Of a stretch of 6,129 bases of DNA, positions 1 through 6,129 are shown in pieces. Position 1 is the first letter of the stretch, and each line of letters opens with the position of its first letter. The notes under the pieces were generated by a model. It did no database searches and had not been told where the DNA came from. It saw nothing but the letters and a program-made list of their open reading frames with translations. Source of the stretch: a virus; IMG/VR virus record IMGVR_UViG_3300020041_000003, positions 1 to 6,129 of that record; one strand, 5' to 3'. A program made the translations under genes and the position numbers.

Positions 1-116
1 CTTTATCTTGCCTCCTCCAACATCGCCGTTATACGCGAAAATTCGTATCTGCTGGCGTTGGTGATTTTCTTGGTTATATGCCTCGCCCTTCTGCTCGTGT
101 TTCGTCGTGGTCTTAT
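1..116 (+). repeat. Terminal redundancy, copy 1 (identical to 6014..6129); signature of a circular genome that was linearised
   Basis: Comparing bases 1..116 (ctttatcttgcctcctcc...tcgtggtcttat) with 6014..6129 by eye shows an exact match running to the window end. The implied unit length is 6013 nt. Confidence 0.95.
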
Positions 117-458
117 TTTGACTGCAAGAAGAATATCGATTATAATTACACGATTCCTCGATACTACCTTAGATATCTTAAACCGGAAGACGAGGTTATG
201 CGTTCGATTGCCGCTGCTGACGCTTATGCACATTTTAGCAAGTCTTCTCTGGTTAAGCGTATTGTGTCTTTGTGTGTTGAGCGGTTCAATCTCAATTCCG
301 CCGTATCCCGTAGAGCTTCGTACACGTGGGAGCAAAAGCAAGTAATGCGTTTCTCTGCGTCCTCTCGGAGGTTGCCCGACTTTGACCCTCCCGCTTGGCT
401 AGACTCGGATGTTCTTCAGTTTTGGAGAGACCATTATAAACTTCAACTAATTATTTAA
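3..458 (+). CDS. VP4: Replication initiation protein (Microviridae VP4 / phiX174 A-like HUH endonuclease), C-terminal part; continues from 5401..6129 across the circular junction
   Basis: This frame is open from the window start. Position 78 equals 6091 in the repeat copy, which is in frame with the ATG at 5401. Bases 3..116 translate to LSCLLQHRRYTRKFVSAGVGDFLGYMPRPSARVSSWSY, the same peptide that ends the 5401..6129 reading frame. The TAA stop is at 456..458, 3 nt before the VP1 ATG. The joined ORF is 1071 nt (356 aa). Confidence 0.9.
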   Translation, partial: LSCLLQHRRYTRKFVSAGVGDFLGYMPRPSARVSSWSYFDCKKNIDYNYTIPRYYLRYLKPEDEVMRSIAAADAYAHFSKSSLVKRIVSLCVERFNLNSAVSRRASYTWEQKQVMRFSASSRRLPDFDPPAWLDSDVLQFWRDHYKLQLII

Positions 459-461
459 TTT

Positions 462-2261
462 ATGGGAAAACAACCTTTTATCTCACATGCCGTAAATGGT
501 TACTCTCGTTACGATGTTCCTGAGAGTAAAGCCTTTACATGCACACCGGGTATTCTCTATCCGGTGCGAATCGATTTTATTAATGCCCGTGACCGCGTCT
601 CTATCGAGCAGGGCATTGACGTTCGTAGCAATCCTCTCGCTGTTCCGACGTTTAATCCTTATACTATCCGGCTTCACCGTTTTTGGGTGCCGCTTCAGCT
701 GTATCACCCTGAATTGAGGACGAATAGTAGTAAGTTCGACATGAACGATTTGAGTCTTAATTGGCTTGTCTCCTGTCAGTCTCAAGCGGGTGGTCTGAAT
801 GCTGACTTTTTCGGTGCAGCTTATACCAATTCGTTGATGTCTTGGTTGCGTATCGCTAATAAGTACACTACTGGTGTAACCTCCGTTCCTTCTTCCGTGT
901 CTCTTCCTGCTGGTTCTTCTATAGACCGTTGGAGTAATGCGGATTCGTATTTAGCCTATTGGGATATCGTCCGTAACTACTATAGTTATTCGCAGTGGGG
1001 GCTTTACTCTTTCGCTTGGCCTATGGCAAACAAAGTTCTTTATTCTGGTTCTGCCTATCAACTCGATCCCGATAATTCTGGTGACTCTCGCTTTTTTACG
1101 CAGTGTTTTGGGAATCTTGAGTTCCTTGATGCTTACTTTGAGAGTCAGTTTTATCCGTCGGCTTTAACTTCTACGAATAATACTTTTAATCGTGGTAATT
1201 TGTTTACGCAGATAATTCGCTCTGACTTGGATAATTCTGCTGCTTCCGGTAATGGTTTTCCCGTTTCTACGACCTTGCCGTCCACCTCGCTTTGGGGTTC
1301 AACCGGTATTCTTGCCCAGACCTTACCTACCGCTTCTTCTGCAGGTAATTCTGCTGTTTCCTATTTTGTTGTTGCGCATCCTATGGCTGTATGTCCTTCG
1401 AATCCTGACCGTTTTAGTCGTCTCATTCCCACTGGCGCTAATTCTGCTGTATCTATGACGGGCGTGTCTACTATTCCTCAGTTGGCCATCGCTTCTCGTC
1501 TCCAGGAGTATAAGGACTTGCTTGGTGCAGGAGGTAGTCGCTATAGCGATTGGTTGGAAACGTTTTTTGCTTCCAAAATTGAGCACGTTGACCGTCCGAA
1601 ACTCCTTTTCAGCGCCTCGCAGACTGTTAATGTGCAGATTGTTATGAATCAAGCCGGGGATAATAATTTTTCCGGCAATCAACCTCTTGGACAACAAGGT
1701 GGTTCTATCGCTTTTAACGACCGTTTAGGCCGTCGCCAGTCTTATTACTTTCGTGAGCCTGGTTATATGATTGATATGTTGAGCATTCGCCCTGTTTATT
1801 ACTGGTCTTTTATCAAGCCGGACTACCTCAACTATATGGGTTCTGATTACTTCAACCCTATTTATAACGATATTGGATATCAAGACGTTCCCGCCTTTCG
1901 TCTCGCTTTTAACGGCAATCCTGGGGCTTCGTTTGCTACCGAACCTTGTTTTAACGAGTTTCGTTCCTCTTATGATGAGGTGTTAGGTCAGCTCCAGGCT
2001 TATAGTAGACCGGAAGCCGAAGGTGGATCTGGAGTTCCCCTCTACTCTTATTGGGTTCAGCAGCGTACTGTTTATACTTATAGTGGAACCGGTTCCCTCC
2101 CTGAGGCTAGTTATTATCCCCTCCTTTTCGTTGATTTGGCTCAGGTTAATTCTCCTTTCAAGTCAAATGTTGAGGATAATTTCTTCGTGAATATGTCTTA
2201 TGCCGTTCAGAAGAAGAGCCTCGTTAATAAAACTTTCGCGACTCGTTTGTCTAACCGTTAA
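462..2261 (+). CDS. VP1: Major capsid protein (Microviridae VP1 / phiX174 F-like jelly-roll)
   Basis: A 599-aa ORF, the largest in the genome. The N-terminal block FTCTPGILYPV...VRSNPLAVPTFNPYTIRLHRFWVPLQLY parallels the conserved microvirus capsid pattern (phiX174 F: ...LRLSPLRR...IFTFYVPHRHVY). The C-terminal block YFREPGYMIDMLSIRPVYYW matches the F-x-E-x-G-Y...RP...Y motif of VP1 proteins. Third codon positions are T-rich. Confidence 0.9.
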   Translation: MGKQPFISHAVNGYSRYDVPESKAFTCTPGILYPVRIDFINARDRVSIEQGIDVRSNPLAVPTFNPYTIRLHRFWVPLQLYHPELRTNSSKFDMNDLSLNWLVSCQSQAGGLNADFFGAAYTNSLMSWLRIANKYTTGVTSVPSSVSLPAGSSIDRWSNADSYLAYWDIVRNYYSYSQWGLYSFAWPMANKVLYSGSAYQLDPDNSGDSRFFTQCFGNLEFLDAYFESQFYPSALTSTNNTFNRGNLFTQIIRSDLDNSAASGNGFPVSTTLPSTSLWGSTGILAQTLPTASSAGNSAVSYFVVAHPMAVCPSNPDRFSRLIPTGANSAVSMTGVSTIPQLAIASRLQEYKDLLGAGGSRYSDWLETFFASKIEHVDRPKLLFSASQTVNVQIVMNQAGDNNFSGNQPLGQQGGSIAFNDRLGRRQSYYFREPGYMIDMLSIRPVYYWSFIKPDYLNYMGSDYFNPIYNDIGYQDVPAFRLAFNGNPGASFATEPCFNEFRSSYDEVLGQLQAYSRPEAEGGSGVPLYSYWVQQRTVYTYSGTGSLPEASYYPLLFVDLAQVNSPFKSNVEDNFFVNMSYAVQKKSLVNKTFATRLSNR

Positions 2262-2273
2262 TACATTGATTTT

Positions 2274-2570
2274 ATGGCACTTGATTGGTTACTTGAAGAT
2301 ATTCCCGCTTACGTTTCTCGCGGTCAGCGTATCCTTTCCGTTCTTGACGGTTCTGGTTCTGTCGACGTTCTTCCCGGTCGGCCGGATGTGGTTGTTGAAC
2401 CTTCTGATTTCGAGAAGGGGGAGAAGTTCAACCCTGATATCGATTTTGACCCTAACTCGTTTTCTCGTATGGATAAATTCGATGGTCTCGAGGTTGGTCA
2501 AGAACTGATTGATTCAGAGATAGATAGGTCTAAGTCCACTTCAAACCCCTCTAAGTCTGAAGAAAAATAG
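2274..2570 (+). CDS. Small acidic hypothetical protein (98 aa); possible scaffolding-type protein
   Basis: The ORF starts 12 nt after the VP1 stop, is on the same strand and has T-rich third positions. A +1-frame hydrophobic shadow ORF (2200..2508) lies over it, as seen over the other real genes. By hand count it has about 22 D/E and 11 K/R. I recognise no family motif. Confidence 0.6.
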   Translation: MALDWLLEDIPAYVSRGQRILSVLDGSGSVDVLPGRPDVVVEPSDFEKGEKFNPDIDFDPNSFSRMDKFDGLEVGQELIDSEIDRSKSTSNPSKSEEK

Positions 2571-2703
2571 TACATTCTTTACTTGACGATATATGCTACG
2601 TGCGCGGACCCCTTTTGCGAGAGTCCGTGAATCGCTAAAGGTTATTGGTAACGACTGCAGGAGAGGCCGCGCATTTTTCTATCGTTCTTTAAATTTTACT
2701 ACC

Positions 2704-2895
2704 ATGTCTGATACTAAACTGCCGTTTTACAAGTCGAAGGCGTTTTGGACACTCGTTTCTTCCATTGTTGCTGCTTTAGCTGCTTTTTTTCTTGCCTCGT
2801 GTTCTGCTCAGGCTCGGATGCAGCGTAGTGGCGTTCATATCGATACTGTGCGTGTCGATTATATCATTCGTTCTAACAATTTAACGCATATATAG
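2704..2895 (+). CDS. Small predicted lipoprotein / membrane protein (63 aa from ATG 2704; alternative 100-aa form from ATG 2593)
   Basis: From ATG 2704 the product is MSDTKLPFYKSK-AFWTLVSSIVAALAAFF-LASC-SAQ... This has a basic n-region, a hydrophobic h-region and the lipobox L-A-S-C (Cys33, codon 2800..2802). The TAG stop at 2893..2895 lies 1 nt before the VP2 ATG. T3 codon bias is stronger downstream of 2704 than in 2593..2703. Confidence 0.6.
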   Translation: MSDTKLPFYKSKAFWTLVSSIVAALAAFFLASCSAQARMQRSGVHIDTVRVDYIIRSNNLTHI

Positions 2896-2896
2896 T

Positions 2897-4267
2897 ATGC
2901 CTGCTCCTATTGCCCCTATTGCCGCATCCTTTGGTCAAGCTCTTGGTCAATCCGCCGCCTCTACGGGTGCTACAGGTTTGATTTCTGGCGCCCTCGGTCA
3001 GCTTTTCGGAGGCATGAATGCCCGTCGTCAGTGGCGTTTCCAGCAAAAGCAAATGAAGCTTCAACAGCAGTACGCTTTGGAGCAAATGCAGAAGCAGTCA
3101 GAGTTGTCTTATGCTAATTGGCAGAAACAATTTGATTATGAAAATGCCTATAATGATCCTTCGAAACTTTTCGCTCGCTATTTGAAGGCTGGTGTTACCC
3201 CCGCGGCCGTCCTTGGTTCTTCGGGTGTTGGTGTTAACGCTACTATGTCAGGAGGTTCTGCTGCTATGCCTTCCGCTGCTGGTCCTTCTGGCGGTTCTCC
3301 AGTTAGTCCCGGTGCTTCGCCTGTTGCCGACCCTACTGCTATCGCGCAGAATATGGTTGCGCAGTCAACGGTAAGCCGTAACGATGCTGCCGCTAATCGC
3401 GATAACGCTGAGGCTCAGTCGATTAATGACCAGAATGTTGGCAACCAGCTTTATGTCGCTATGGCTCAGGCTCGTGTAGCCCTTGATGAGGCAGTAACAA
3501 AACATAACTTAGCAGCTCATGATGTTCTTCGAGTTCAAGAGGATATAGAAAAGAATAATCGATTTATTTCTGATTCTACCCTTTTGAGTGTCGTTGATGA
3601 AAAGAAGAATCAAGCTGCTTATGTTGCTGCATTAGTTAAGCGTTTAGGTATTGAGAATGATAATTTGGGTGCACTTATGTCTGCTCAGGCTTTTATGATG
3701 AACACTCAGGGCGTACTCAATCAGATTCTCGGCGACCAGGCTCGAGAGGTGATTGAATCCCTTCGTCTCAATAATCTTGATTCTGCCTATGAGCTTTCGC
3801 GTAATTGGGATAAGCGTTTTGACATTGAAATTCCGAATCCTCAGTACGAAAGGAATCTTCGTAGTTCTAACCCCATTACTCGTGGTAATCCTGGCCCTAG
3901 TTCTTTCAAGGTTTCGATGTCTCTTAAAGACTTTTACGATAAGACCGTTATAAATCAGGCAAATGCTTCTGAGTTCCTCCCCGAACAGGCTCGCATTGCT
4001 CTTCGTAACGCAAAACTTGATCCGTATGTTGAAATTTCTAAGGCCTTGGTTGGTGCGGCCGCTAGTATTACCGGTGCAGGTATAATCCGTGGAGGCATGT
4101 CTCGCGCGTCTAAGACTATCTCTGCTGGCGGTTCTACTAGTGATTCTGCCGGCTCTTCGCTCACAACTCGTTACGATTCGAGAGGAAATCTTGTTGGTTA
4201 TGCGAAAACAGAGATGACTCGTGGCACTCATTCGAGCTCGTACAATACTACTCGAAGGTATCGCTAG
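2897..4267 (+). CDS. VP2: Minor capsid / DNA pilot protein (Microviridae VP2 / phiX174 H-like)
   Basis: A 456-aa ORF. The Gly/Ala-rich N-terminus has GxxxG-type spacing (IAASFGQALGQSAASTGATGLISGALGQLFGG). It is followed by a Q/K-rich helix and the block YENAYNDPSKLFARYLKAGVTPAAVLG, which matches the conserved VP2 pattern N-x-P...Q/R-x-x-R-x-K-x-A-G-x-N/T-P. There is a central coiled-coil-like region and G/S/A-rich low-complexity tracts. Its position after VP1 is typical. Confidence 0.85.
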   Translation: MPAPIAPIAASFGQALGQSAASTGATGLISGALGQLFGGMNARRQWRFQQKQMKLQQQYALEQMQKQSELSYANWQKQFDYENAYNDPSKLFARYLKAGVTPAAVLGSSGVGVNATMSGGSAAMPSAAGPSGGSPVSPGASPVADPTAIAQNMVAQSTVSRNDAAANRDNAEAQSINDQNVGNQLYVAMAQARVALDEAVTKHNLAAHDVLRVQEDIEKNNRFISDSTLLSVVDEKKNQAAYVAALVKRLGIENDNLGALMSAQAFMMNTQGVLNQILGDQAREVIESLRLNNLDSAYELSRNWDKRFDIEIPNPQYERNLRSSNPITRGNPGPSSFKVSMSLKDFYDKTVINQANASEFLPEQARIALRNAKLDPYVEISKALVGAAASITGAGIIRGGMSRASKTISAGGSTSDSAGSSLTTRYDSRGNLVGYAKTEMTRGTHSSSYNTTRRYR

Positions 4268-4280
4268 AATTGTTGTTTTT

Positions 4281-4311
4281 TTTGCATTTTAGATTTTTGT
4301 TGTTATATTTG
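4281..4311 (+). promoter_or_regulatory. Bacteroides-type sigma-A promoter candidate (-33 TTTG, -7 TAnnTTTG)
   Basis: TTTG at 4281..4284 and TATATTTG at 4304..4311 are separated by 19 nt, in the AT-rich 70-nt spacer after VP2. This is the only place in the window where I found both elements together. The ATG at 4338 lies about 20 nt downstream of the expected start site. Confidence 0.5.
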
Positions 4312-4337
4312 CGCTATAAACCAATAACCGTATTGTT

Positions 4338-4643
4338 ATGAAAAAGAATCAAAATTTCAAAGTTGACAAGCTGGCGATCGATGTTATAGAATACGCGTTC
4401 GTTGAGTGGCTTATTCGTCGGGGAATATTTGCTGCCTTTAGGGCGAACTATGACCGCATCCCTACGGCTCGGAAAACCTTTCGAGACTGCTTGCGTGAGC
4501 ACATCCAGTATGTTTATCGTGTATCTCACCTTGGTCCCGAGGCTCTCATCTCCTCGGCTTTTCTGTTTACTTCAGCTCCTGAGGGTTACGAATTCTGGAT
4601 TAAGCACTCTGACGCTTGGAGGCGTTTTTACGAAGAGCTTTAA
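4338..4643 (+). CDS. Hypothetical protein (101 aa), first gene of the accessory cassette
   Basis: A clean ORF after the promoter candidate, with T3-rich codons and a +1 shadow ORF (4402..4647). The C-terminal block SSAFLFTSAPEGYEFWIKHSDAWRRFY resembles a (S/T)-x-E-G-x-x-(F/Y)-W...W pattern that I recall from small phage and Bacteroidales hypothetical proteins. I cannot assign a function. Confidence 0.65.
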   Translation: MKKNQNFKVDKLAIDVIEYAFVEWLIRRGIFAAFRANYDRIPTARKTFRDCLREHIQYVYRVSHLGPEALISSAFLFTSAPEGYEFWIKHSDAWRRFYEEL

Positions 4644-4666
4644 ATGAAACGTTAAATTATATTATT

Positions 4667-4990
4667 ATGACACAGGTTCATATCGTTATCCGTCGTATTA
4701 GTCCGGCCCTTAAGGTCGATTTTGTTCAGGTAGGTTGTATTAAAGATGATCAGTTTTCGACACTACCTCTTGATGCTCTTGATCGTACTCCAGTTTCTGA
4801 TTTTGTAGAGCAGTCTAGTATCTCTACTTCGCCCTATATCAATCATTGTCAGATCCCTAGCCTTGTAGAGGCCCTGATTGCGTATCCTGATTTTTCGATT
4901 GATTTCTTCGATAATACACTTGTTCTTATGTTTGGTACTGATCTGACTCACGATGAAAGCGCGTCGAAAGAAGAAGGGAAAGGGCACTAG
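4667..4990 (+). CDS. Hypothetical acidic protein (107 aa from ATG 4667; ORF track start 4616 would overlap the previous gene)
   Basis: The ATG at 4667 follows an AT-rich spacer (aaattatattatt), like the other starts. Third positions are T-rich (gtt cat atc gtt atc cgt cgt att agt...). The product has about 16 D/E and 7 K/R. The TAG stop at 4988..4990 is followed by an intrinsic terminator. Confidence 0.6.
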   Translation: MTQVHIVIRRISPALKVDFVQVGCIKDDQFSTLPLDALDRTPVSDFVEQSSISTSPYINHCQIPSLVEALIAYPDFSIDFFDNTLVLMFGTDLTHDESASKEEGKGH

Positions 4991-5033
4991 AGTAGTGACC
5001 CGCCCGCTTGGTGGAAGAGTTCTTTAACTCGTT

Positions 5034-5072
5034 GAGCCCCAGGAGATTCCCCTCTCCTGCGGGTTCTTTTTT
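5034..5072 (+). terminator. Rho-independent terminator
   Basis: GAGCCC-CAGGAGA (5034..5046) pairs with TCTCCTG-c-GGGTTC (5053..5066). That gives 13 bp with one bulged C (5060), one G-T wobble and the loop TTCCCC. It is followed directly by TTTTTT (5067..5072) and lies 44 nt after the stop at 4990. Confidence 0.7.
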
Positions 5073-5076
5073 ATTC

Positions 5077-5163
5077 ACCGGTTTACCGGTATATCCCAAA
5101 CGAAGTGGAGCCACGGAGGCCGAAGACGCGCAGCGTCCCAGCCGTTAAGGCTGTCGGCCGGCG
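5077..5163 (+). other. GC-rich structured non-coding element (tandem ACCGGT palindromes plus a three-way-junction fold); candidate ssDNA origin or primosome/packaging signal
   Basis: ACCGGT occurs at 5077..5082 and 5085..5090. An outer stem GGCCGA (5118..5123) / TCGGCC (5154..5159) encloses hairpin GACGC-gca-GCGTC (5125..5137) and hairpin CAGCC-gttaa-GGCTG (5139..5153). No +-strand ORF covers this region. Confidence 0.4.
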
Positions 5164-5200
5164 AAACGTAGTAATTGATGCTAAGTAATATTTTTAAGTT

Positions 5201-5401
5201 ATGGATTATTTTGATTTTAAACCTAGATATTCCCCTATTATTGATAGCGTCCCTCATCGTTATTCCGTTGGCGCATATCGTGGTAGAAAGCGAGTTATTA
5301 TTGCTTGGTTTGCTGACGAAAGTCCTGCAAAAGACTATCTTACCCGCTGTCGTCTTACCAACCCTTATGTTAAGTTTGACTGTCTTAGAAGTCTTTTTTA
5401 A
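5201..5401 (+). CDS. Small basic hypothetical protein (66 aa) whose stop overlaps the Rep start
   Basis: The TAA stop (5399..5401) overlaps the Rep ATG (5401..5403) as TAATG. Third positions are T-rich. The overlapping 91-aa hydrophobic ORF 5175..5450 sits in its +1 frame, as expected if 5201..5401 is the real frame. It has about 12 K/R and 7 D/E. No family is recognised. Confidence 0.5.
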   Translation: MDYFDFKPRYSPIIDSVPHRYSVGAYRGRKRVIIAWFADESPAKDYLTRCRLTNPYVKFDCLRSLF

Positions 5402-6129
5402 TGGCTTGCTCATCTCCCATATGGATACGAAATCGTCGTTATTTCGATAAGAAGAATCCTTGTCGTAATGGTTCCGACGCCGCCAAGTCCGCTTTGGCTC
5501 TCCGCCCCTGGGATACTGCTCGCCAGTGGCTAATGGTTCCCTGCGGAAAGTGCGAAGACTGCTTGCGTCGTCAGCGTAACGATTGGTTTGTTCGACTTGA
5601 GCGTGAGCTTGCTCGTTGTAAAGCCGATTCTCAGCAGGCTATTTTTATTACGATAACTATAGCTCCTAAGTATTACGAGGAGGCATTGATTGATCCGACT
5701 CGTTTTATTCGACGGTGGAACGAGCGTGTCCGTCATAACCTTGGTCACTCCTTTAAACATGCGTTTTTCCAGGAGTTTGGCACCCATCCCGAAGTTGGCT
5801 CTGAGCCGCGCCTACATTTCCATGGTTTCTTGTTCGGGACTAATGTTCTATACAACGAAATCCGGAAGGCTGTCGGAGACCTTGGGTTTGTTTGGCTCGG
5901 AAAAGGTACGCATAAACGAGCTCGATATGTTGTTAAATATGTTACTAAACAGATTCAGTTTAACCCCGAAGATGTTTCGGGCAAATTTGTTACTCTAAAT
6001 GGAAAACCTACACCTTTATCTTGCCTCCTCCAACATCGCCGTTATACGCGAAAATTCGTATCTGCTGGCGTTGGTGATTTTCTTGGTTATATGCCTCGCC
6101 CTTCTGCTCGTGTTTCGTCGTGGTCTTAT
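5401..6129 (+). CDS. VP4: Replication initiation protein (Microviridae VP4 / phiX174 A-like HUH endonuclease), N-terminal part; open to the window end, continues at 117..458 after the circular junction
   Basis: Hand translation gives MACSSPIWIRNRRYF...VPCGKCEDCLRRQRNDWFVRL (Cys cluster). It continues with IFITITI (motif I, 5641..5661), LHFHGFLF (HUH motif II, H-F-H at 5815..5823) and RYVVKYVTK (motif III with two Tyr three residues apart, 5926..5940, as in the phiX174 A protein). There is no stop before 6129. Confidence 0.9.
   Translation, partial: MACSSPIWIRNRRYFDKKNPCRNGSDAAKSALALRPWDTARQWLMVPCGKCEDCLRRQRNDWFVRLERELARCKADSQQAIFITITIAPKYYEEALIDPTRFIRRWNERVRHNLGHSFKHAFFQEFGTHPEVGSEPRLHFHGFLFGTNVLYNEIRKAVGDLGFVWLGKGTHKRARYVVKYVTKQIQFNPEDVSGKFVTLNGKPTPLSCLLQHRRYTRKFVSAGVGDFLGYMPRPSARVSSWSY
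6014..6129 (+). repeat. Terminal redundancy, copy 2 (identical to 1..116)
   Basis: See copy 1. This copy lies inside the Rep coding sequence, so it is an overlap from circular assembly or permutation rather than a biological terminal repeat. Confidence 0.95.

Follow-up and report, generated by a model that had tools for sequence, protein, structure and literature searches.

We analyzed a 6,129-nucleotide (nt) stretch of viral DNA (IMG/VR virus record IMGVR_UViG_3300020041_000003, positions 1 to 6,129; this whole stretch is referred to as the window), in which an open reading frame (ORF) of 63 codons encoding a prolipoprotein-type protein lies at 2704-2895 (+), between the genes for the major capsid protein VP1 and the pilot protein VP2. 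The window has an exact 116-nt direct repeat at its two ends (1-116 and 6014-6129), which is an assembly overlap; the microvirus genome is therefore complete and circular, measures 6,013 nt, and has every gene on the + strand. Upstream of the ORF are the gene for VP1 (462-2261, +), which matches Pfam Phage_F and the PHROG major head protein, an ORF encoding an acidic protein of 98 amino acids (aa) (2274-2570, +), and a structured noncoding element (2585-2686, +) identified by covariation. Downstream is the gene for VP2 (2897-4267, +), which matches the PHROG pilot protein. The stop codon of the ORF (TAG) occupies 2893-2895, and one base separates it from the VP2 ATG at 2897; an initial annotation of this DNA had described an ORF that starts at ATG 2704 and abuts the pilot gene, exactly as we find it.

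The encoded protein reads, in order, MSDTKLPFYKSK - AFWTLVSSIVAALAAFF - LASC(33) - SAQARMQRSGVHIDTVRVDYIIRSNNLTHI, with 30 residues following Cys33. The n-region MSDTKLPFYKSK (2704-2739, +) has a net charge of +2, the h-region AFWTLVSSIVAALAAFF (2740-2790, +) is hydrophobic, and the lipobox L-A-S-C (2791-2802, +) ends in Cys33, the codon of which is TGT at 2800-2802. The predicted signal is thus 32 aa long and the predicted mature lipopeptide (2800-2892, +) has 31 residues including the cysteine, with a core, SGVHIDTVRVDYIIRSNN, at ~2827-2880. We applied a lipoprotein rule in the style of PROSITE PS51257, which asks for six noncharged residues, a lipobox, a Cys at position 15-35, and a Lys or Arg within the first 7 residues. 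The window protein conforms to this rule, as do 107 of 114 members of its family compared with 107 of 20,000 (0.5%) composition-preserving shuffles; among the ORFs of 40 aa or more in the six frames, each read from its first ATG, it is the only one that conforms. The lipoprotein-type signal proposed in the initial annotation is therefore well supported. Lipobox tetrads in the family are mainly LSSC (44) and LASC (38), and the stricter G+LPP pattern fits just 6 of 114 members, since position -1 is usually Ser. Further, Asp or Glu is found within five residues after the Cys in just 2 of 110 family members, and the window protein, which has C-SAQAR here, does not contain the acidic export signal of Bacteroidota surface lipoproteins. 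We agree with the initial annotation that the absence of this acidic patch predicts an anchor facing the periplasm. Overall, the sequence suggests that the ORF encodes a precursor with a lipoprotein-type signal and a periplasm-facing mature part.

To place this ORF in a comparative context, we used 80 related loci from IMG/VR as a set of close relatives. Both ATG 2704 and the 63-codon length are preserved in 80/80 loci, and the variation follows the codons, with 32, 14, and 61 variable sites and entropies of 0.25, 0.13, and 1.07 at positions 1, 2, and 3, respectively. The ratio of nonsynonymous to synonymous substitution rates (dN/dS, Nei-Gojobori) is 0.065 for the lipoprotein ORF compared with 0.086 for the adjoining acidic ORF. 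By segment, dN/dS is 0.038 for the n-region (codons 2-12), 0.049 for the h-region with the lipobox (codons 13-33), 0.097 for the linker (codons 34-43), 0.009 for the mature core (codons 44-58), and 0.32 for the final five residues (codons 59-63). We conclude from the preserved start and length and from these substitution patterns that the 63 codons form a genuine gene, under strong purifying selection, and that the ORF did not arise by chance. It occupies the same slot before VP2 in all 18 of the more distant genomes examined that share the gene order of the window (architecture A, described below), so that a lipobox ORF is kept at the VP1-VP2 junction in these close and more distant relatives, a check that the initial annotation had recommended, and its Cys is invariant. 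The lipoprotein gene is a core gene of its clade.

A word-indexed search returned 423 homologues, nearly all of them called as proteins of 100 aa because gene callers read through the structured element, and an exhaustive search of 50%-identity representatives returned 51 proteins, 23 of them with E<=1e-10. As seen in an alignment of 27 diverse members, Cys-33, Gly-43, His-45, and Asp-47 are invariant (Gly-43, His-45, and Asp-47 in type 1 members, as defined below), the Cys being invariant also in the 80 loci; Lys-12, Trp-15, Ala-24, Phe-29, and Thr-48 (the last in type 1) are nearly invariant, and the spacing from Cys to Gly is fixed. Two types of mature part follow an almost identical signal, type 1 with ...SGVHIDTVRVDYIIRSNN... 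and type 2 with ...SGDTTRTTITYEQIGNFKRP, the latter being found in loci L090-92 (in a variant form), L098-101, L103, and L105-107; the two types are probably related through a small indel. The h-region has the unusually conserved family consensus KKFWTLVAAIVAALxAFF, with Ala at i, i+4, and i+8, and is near-identical between genomes in which VP1 and Rep are just 24-31% identical. Signal peptides normally vary freely; here, the signal region is constrained as strongly as the mature part. Either the helix itself performs a function that depends on its sequence, or the module is exchanged among microviruses, or both explanations apply.

When 27 family members were compared with NCBIfam, Pfam, and PHROGs, the matches were all sub-threshold, to lipid-attachment and lipoprotein-signal models and to miscellaneous transmembrane (TM) proteins. 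Pfam yielded no match for these 27 members at E<=5 or for the window protein at E<=0.1, and a profile search of PDB sequences with the family yielded none at E<=10. One close homologue carries the label "lipoprotein" in nr, the ORF is unannotated in most deposited relatives, and we found no mention of it in the published literature that we searched. AlphaFold2 returned one long helix that is confident over the TM segment only (predicted local distance difference test (pLDDT) 86-91). The family is a new, unannotated one among the small phage envelope lipoproteins, none of which has been characterized in this virus family.

The initial annotation had also considered translation from 2593, which would give a 100-aa protein with an Arg-rich cytoplasmic tail and the hydrophobic segment as an internal TM helix. 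This frame is open in the window and in 66 of 80 close relatives (two of them with an in-frame insertion), and 100-aa products are what gene callers report. However, the upstream frame 2593-2703 is broken by an in-frame stop or a frameshift in ~14/80 close relatives, and none of the more distant genomes joins the extension to the ORF, because the frame differs or a stop intervenes. The region 2577-2692 is almost invariant and without three-base periodicity, whereas the synonymous sites of the adjoining ORF are nearly saturated, and its variation consists of compensatory base-pair changes. Discrete insertions of 30 nt (L025 and L066) and 96 nt (L058, L067, and L069) lie exactly between the element and the lipoprotein ATG and so separate the 2593 stretch from the real start. 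We therefore regard the longer protein as refuted by the comparative data and give it practically no credence. For the 100-aa form, Pfam returned "Harakiri" (E=0.032, 15 bits compared with a cut-off of 27.9), which we dismissed as an artefact of the hydrophobic segment in a protein that does not exist.

What occupies this region is a fold with four helices on the + strand, 2585-2591/2680-2686, 2600-2607/2667-2674, 2608-2610/2647-2649, and 2611-2620/2632-2641, the last of which closes the loop GAGTCCGTGAA. RNAalifold gave 29 pairs, 6 of them with compensatory double changes; for example, pair 2607-2667 is GC in 53 sequences, GU in 7, and AU in 5 and is never broken. When the structure was held fixed, 99.4% of cells were paired and 61 cells showed double changes compared with 11.9±6.2 in shuffles (0/500 reached 61), and a control in which the partners were slid by 1-3 columns gave at most 3 such cells. 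One-sided changes are of the G·U type, which assigns the fold to the + strand, either as mRNA or as packaged single-stranded DNA. The element has a mean identity of 94.4% compared with a genome mean of 78.6% and is among the two most conserved stretches of the genome. With a covariance model, all architecture-A genomes tested proved to carry the element between the ORFs for the acidic protein and the lipoprotein; the model did not detect it in architecture-B genomes, which is weak evidence given their divergence. A search of the whole window against Rfam gave no match at E<=1, and a simple scan for sigma-70 promoters and terminators found nothing at the element. On the covariation evidence, we conclude that 2585-2686 is a conserved structured noncoding element and that it explains the apparent Arg-rich N-terminal extension at 2593-2703. 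Intergenic hairpins after the capsid gene are known from phages of the phiX174 and G4 types, and by analogy the element could be a complementary-strand origin, or an attenuator or stabilizer of a polycistronic message. We also considered an operator or leader that occludes the lipoprotein start codon; this is unlikely because the distance from the element to the ATG varies from ~17 to ~210 nt among genomes and because the element is undetected beside the gene in architecture B.

The lipoprotein module is found in three genomic arrangements. In architecture A, VP1, the acidic ORF, the structured element, the lipoprotein ORF, and VP2 follow one another, with anything from a 1-nt overlap to an 11-nt gap between the lipoprotein ORF and VP2; this arrangement comprises the window, the 80 close loci, and loci L087, L088, L090-92, L094, and L098-L108. 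In architecture D, represented by Dulem virus 219, a stand-alone gene for a 62-aa protein lies in the VP2-Rep interval, and in architecture B, which belongs to a distant lineage, the module opens an ORF of 190-202 aa directly 5' of Rep. Three different genome positions are as expected of a self-contained module. The architecture-B ORF overprints an ORF of 118-135 aa and ends in a basic tail, ...RRGGRKGRPKGTKTVPLGGSHL, that is homologous to a separate basic ORF of 24 codons in the window (4953-5027, +). This short ORF reads MKARRKKKGKGTRVVTRPLGGRVL, overlaps the end of the preceding ORF124, and is 90.6% conserved; family searches with it gave no match, and we take it to be similar to the microvirus J/VP8 DNA-binding peptides. 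We did not rely on the 190-202-aa forms as a functional fusion from lipoprotein start to J-like tail: the long frame stays stop-free in 31-69% of synonymous shuffles in 5/6 genomes and in 9% in the sixth, and a GTG precedes the basic tail in 4/6 genomes. Likewise, a "similar to VP2" feature drawn over the module in L094 (MG945498.1, 3403-5028) is an over-extended call in another frame and not a fusion. We note that 0.5-1 kb after VP2 is without a convincing ORF in genomes of architectures B and D (L084 2456-3489 and L095 ~3500-4040) and that in Dulem virus 219 VP2 is followed immediately by an ORF of 39 aa with a single TM segment (L095 3355-3474).

With regard to hosts, a search with a near-consensus family member identified one prophage, in Alistipes montrealensis (NZ_JAGYXY010000001.1, an 840-kb scaffold). 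This prophage (L093, 7001-11817) is of architecture B and carries a 202-aa ORF that runs from the lipoprotein to the basic tail and overprints a 135-aa ORF, followed by Rep, VP1, an acidic protein, and VP2. Its presence ties the family to Bacteroidota and indicates that the architecture-B lineage is temperate. The family member lies at the edge of the prophage, with an exact match to TAnnTTTG, the Bacteroidota-type -7 promoter motif, 38 nt upstream. The deposited genomes closest to the window are those of faecal Microviridae of pigs, rodents, lemurs, and tortoises (68-78% nucleotide identity), and public sequencing runs contained only distant relatives (<=17% of words), all of them in wastewater metagenomes.

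The remainder of the window contains ORF101 (4338-4643, +), ORF124 (4616-4990, +), ORF66 (5201-5401, +), and the gene for Rep/VP4, which runs from 5401 over the junction to 458 (+). The window has three exact matches to TAnnTTTG in total, all on the + strand (4304-4311, 4927-4934, and 5371-5378); they sit 20-35 nt 5' of the starts of ORF101, the basic ORF, and Rep, a count not above chance, and all gene starts have an AT-rich context without a Shine-Dalgarno sequence. Overprinted in Rep is a hydrophobic ORF of 119 codons in the +1 frame (+), which extends from ATG 5999 over the junction to 345 (also listed as 58-345 from a TTG) and contains two hydrophobic segments predicted to span the membrane. 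Among relatives, 76/77 close and 4/4 divergent ones keep this frame open. The third-position entropy of Rep is 0.65 inside the overlap compared with 1.10 outside (P=6e-17) and recovers directly past the stop of the embedded ORF, and the first and second codon positions of Rep are more variable inside the overlap. Synonymous shuffles gave P=0.013 for a stop-free frame in that segment, and any run that long occurred in 15% of them. Positions 1-120, which lie inside the overlap, hold the most conserved 100-nt windows of the genome (95-96% identity across ~78 loci), so that a cis-acting site in Rep, such as a nick site or origin, could contribute to the dual-coding signal. The embedded ORF has no family match. 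Judging from its coding signature, it is likely an overprinted membrane ORF, a candidate for a gene in the style of phiX174 E, and could be a serious E-like rival or a partner of the lipoprotein; the statement in the initial annotation that no E-like gene is seen elsewhere in this genome is accordingly doubtful.

What, then, might the lipoprotein do? The reading that we favor, tentatively and with rather less than even confidence, is that it is the precursor of a periplasm-facing lipoprotein that would disrupt the envelope at lysis, possibly together with the product of the Rep-embedded ORF. Lysis leads because the gene is core, because a peptidase is absent, and because the gene has never been seen together with the M15 peptidase. 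None of the nine larger ORFs has a peptidase or amidase domain by comparison with Pfam and PHROGs, and tblastn found no M15 homologue in the window, which upholds the initial annotation on this point. phiX174 is the only microvirus with a known lysis mechanism, and the M15 peptidase is only a proposed lysin in some lineages (PMC3394797). This peptidase is found in ~120 deposited microviruses; among the matches listed, 13 accessions were available, and none of them is shared with the 27 lipoprotein-bearing records. A profile search of two M15-bearing genomes, one of them that of phiHBP1, a cultured Bacteroides fragilis phage (PMC13064476), detected no member of the lipoprotein family, with positive controls at 1.5e-35 and 3e-16. 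The M15 gene of PQ007279 occupies the VP2-Rep interval, the very slot of the lipoprotein gene in architectures B and D.

Under the lysis reading, the gene would be read from a polycistronic message, downstream of the large structured element, and its position directly against VP2 may couple the translation of the two genes. The precursor would be inserted through Sec and lipidated by Lgt on Cys33, and signal peptidase II (SPII) would cut between Ser32 and Cys33 to yield two products. One would be a 31-residue lipid-anchored peptide on the periplasmic side, in which the conserved core DTVRVDYIIRS, with its alternation of hydrophobic and polar residues, appears suited to beta-strand addition onto a host envelope protein. 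The other would be the freed 32-residue signal peptide with its Ala-rich helix, which, being conserved far beyond the needs of export, probably has an inner-membrane role of its own. In a microvirus clade that infects Bacteroidota and lacks a cell-wall hydrolase, the lipoprotein may thus serve as lysis effector, alone or as one of two, with an action comparable to that of the small bacteriocin-release (colicin lysis) lipoproteins but without kinship to them. A bolder form of this proposal, which we consider doubtful, is that both cleavage products are active and define a new class of single-gene lysis effector, the signal helix acting in the inner membrane and the beta-strand lipopeptide jamming an essential envelope-biogenesis machine. 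If true, the target could be, for example, a machine that sorts or processes lipoproteins or one that inserts proteins into the outer membrane, and the protein would be a lipoprotein "protein antibiotic" with a target other than MurA, MraY, or MurJ.

Several observations count against lysis by the lipoprotein. The Rep-embedded ORF is a rival lysis candidate and weakens any argument by elimination. The comparison with M15 rests on 13 of ~120 accessions and on loci that were chosen for carrying the lipoprotein. The temperate lineage also has the family, possibly with a promoter of its own, which would fit a lysogen-expressed exclusion factor equally well. The lipobox LESC, with a Glu at -2 that is outside the PROSITE set, occurs in 5/10 type 2 members and is atypical. 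The mature part has an AlphaFold2 pLDDT of 55-66 and no confident structure, so that docking as a beta-strand is proposed from the sequence pattern alone. Finally, searches of Pfam, PHROGs, and PDB found no sequence relationship to known lytic lipoproteins.

Other functions can be set against lysis. Superinfection exclusion is classically the work of small phage lipoproteins that face the periplasm, and the lipopeptide might, like T5 Llp or Cor of T1 and phi80, bind the outer-membrane receptor of the phage from the inside and so prevent a second infection, or else block the entry route through the VP2 pilot conduit. The setting of the Alistipes family member, in an integrated prophage, at its edge and behind a promoter-like motif, would suit such a role, as would the position of the gene against the pilot gene in the window. 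Further, the variable position of the module and a cross-lineage similarity far above that of VP1 or Rep are consistent with an exchanged, host-directed accessory module. However, the gene is present in every architecture-A genome examined and is not patchy, which is unusual for exclusion genes, and its mature core is nearly invariant although VP1 and VP2, the likely receptor and entry proteins, diverge strongly. The mature part is also, at ~30 aa, half the length of Llp or Cor, and no sequence match to them was found. We consider exclusion unlikely and, on core-gene status and the M15 pattern, lean toward lysis in preference to it.

We think it distinctly unlikely that the two-TM ORF embedded in Rep is the primary lysis protein and the lipoprotein an accessory that completes or tunes lysis, for example one that sets its timing or weakens the outer membrane, or that the two act as a pair. 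Here the open frame in nearly all relatives and the fall in Rep third-position entropy speak for the embedded ORF, and both genes are conserved together across the clade; against this stand the frequency of equally long stop-free runs in the synonymous shuffles, the possible cis-acting site in the most conserved part of the overlap, the lack of a family match, and the tendency of T-rich + strands to yield hydrophobic off-frame ORFs by composition alone. Less probable again is a protein that is not lipidated and remains an uncleaved N-in/C-out single-pass membrane protein, holin- or E-like, with an active helix and a Cys that serves, for example, in a disulfide. Such a protein would account for a helix sequence conserved far beyond the needs of a signal peptide and for its Ala i/i+4/i+8 pattern, which is typical for helix-helix packing; the Glu at -2 in several type 2 members, which departs from the lipobox rule, and weak, nonsignificant matches to holin PHROGs point the same way. 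However, the Cys is invariant and always has a small residue (Ser, Gly, or Ala) at -1, it lies at position 31-33 behind a positive n-region exactly as in lipoprotein precursors, and the xxSC lipobox is the common Bacteroides form. We retain envelope disruption at lysis by a periplasm-facing lipoprotein as our leading reading.

How microviruses other than phiX174 lyse their hosts is an open question (PMC3394797), and such phages are abundant in animal and human guts. The core 63-aa lipoprotein and the Rep-overprinted ORF provide two concrete, testable candidates for a widespread clade. A lytic role would make the lipoprotein the first single-gene lysis protein of its type and would draw attention to a new envelope target in Bacteroidota; a role in exclusion would make it the first such factor described in microviruses of this phylum. 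In most deposited genomes, the ORF is missing or "hypothetical," and gene callers systematically over-extend it to 100 aa. The structured element, in turn, is a candidate replication or expression signal.

In a comparison with known systems, Pfam, PHROG, NCBIfam, and PDB searches assigned the window protein to none of the entericidin, Rz1, Cor, and Llp families. The protein resembles the spanins (the Rz1-type o-spanin and the T1 gp11-type u-spanin) in being a small phage lipoprotein that is predicted to face the periplasm. Unlike an o-spanin, however, it has no i-spanin partner and no endolysin, its gene being flanked by the acidic ORF, the structured element, and VP2; and unlike a u-spanin, it has no C-terminal TM domain and ends 30 residues past the Cys in a polar tail. 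The "spanin-like" label of the initial annotation is thus not retained. The architecture-B forms of 190-202 aa are superficially similar to u-spanins, with an N-terminal lipobox, a C-terminal hydrophobic stretch of 11-17 aa, and a basic tail, but the long frame is not demonstrably selected. T5 Llp and Cor (of T1, phi80, and N15) are likewise small phage lipoproteins on the periplasmic side, where they act on a host outer-membrane protein; their mature parts are about twice as long, they give no Pfam or PHROG match with the window protein, and the window gene is core and not accessory. The M15 peptidase of Alpavirinae, gokushoviruses, and phiHBP1, a proposed endolysin, shares with the lipoprotein a candidate lysis function, an association with microviruses of Bacteroidota, and the VP2-Rep slot, but this enzyme of ~134 aa, which carries a Pfam domain, is unrelated to the lipoprotein ORF and would differ in mechanism.

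With phiX174 E, the lipoprotein has in common that it is a small membrane-targeted microvirus protein with a conserved N-terminal helix that may be the active part, in a genome without a muralytic enzyme. E is overprinted in gene D and has no lipobox, whereas the window ORF has a slot of its own and encodes a lipobox, and its sequence bears no relation to that of E. The closest architecture is that of the colicin lysis or bacteriocin release proteins (BRPs; Pfam Lysis_col). These differ in that there is no sequence match (Pfam, E<=5) and in that they are plasmid-borne in enterobacteria, whereas the window protein is encoded by a viral gene with a Bacteroidota host. In both cases, however, a single small gene, which compromises the envelope in the BRPs and may do so here, encodes a precursor of ~45-65 aa, in which an SPII-type signal of ~20-30 aa and its lipobox precede a mature lipopeptide of ~30 aa. 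The signal peptide of the pCloDF13 BRP remains stable after cleavage and has a share in the effect, and this stable, functional signal peptide has its parallel in the unusually conserved signal helix of the window protein.

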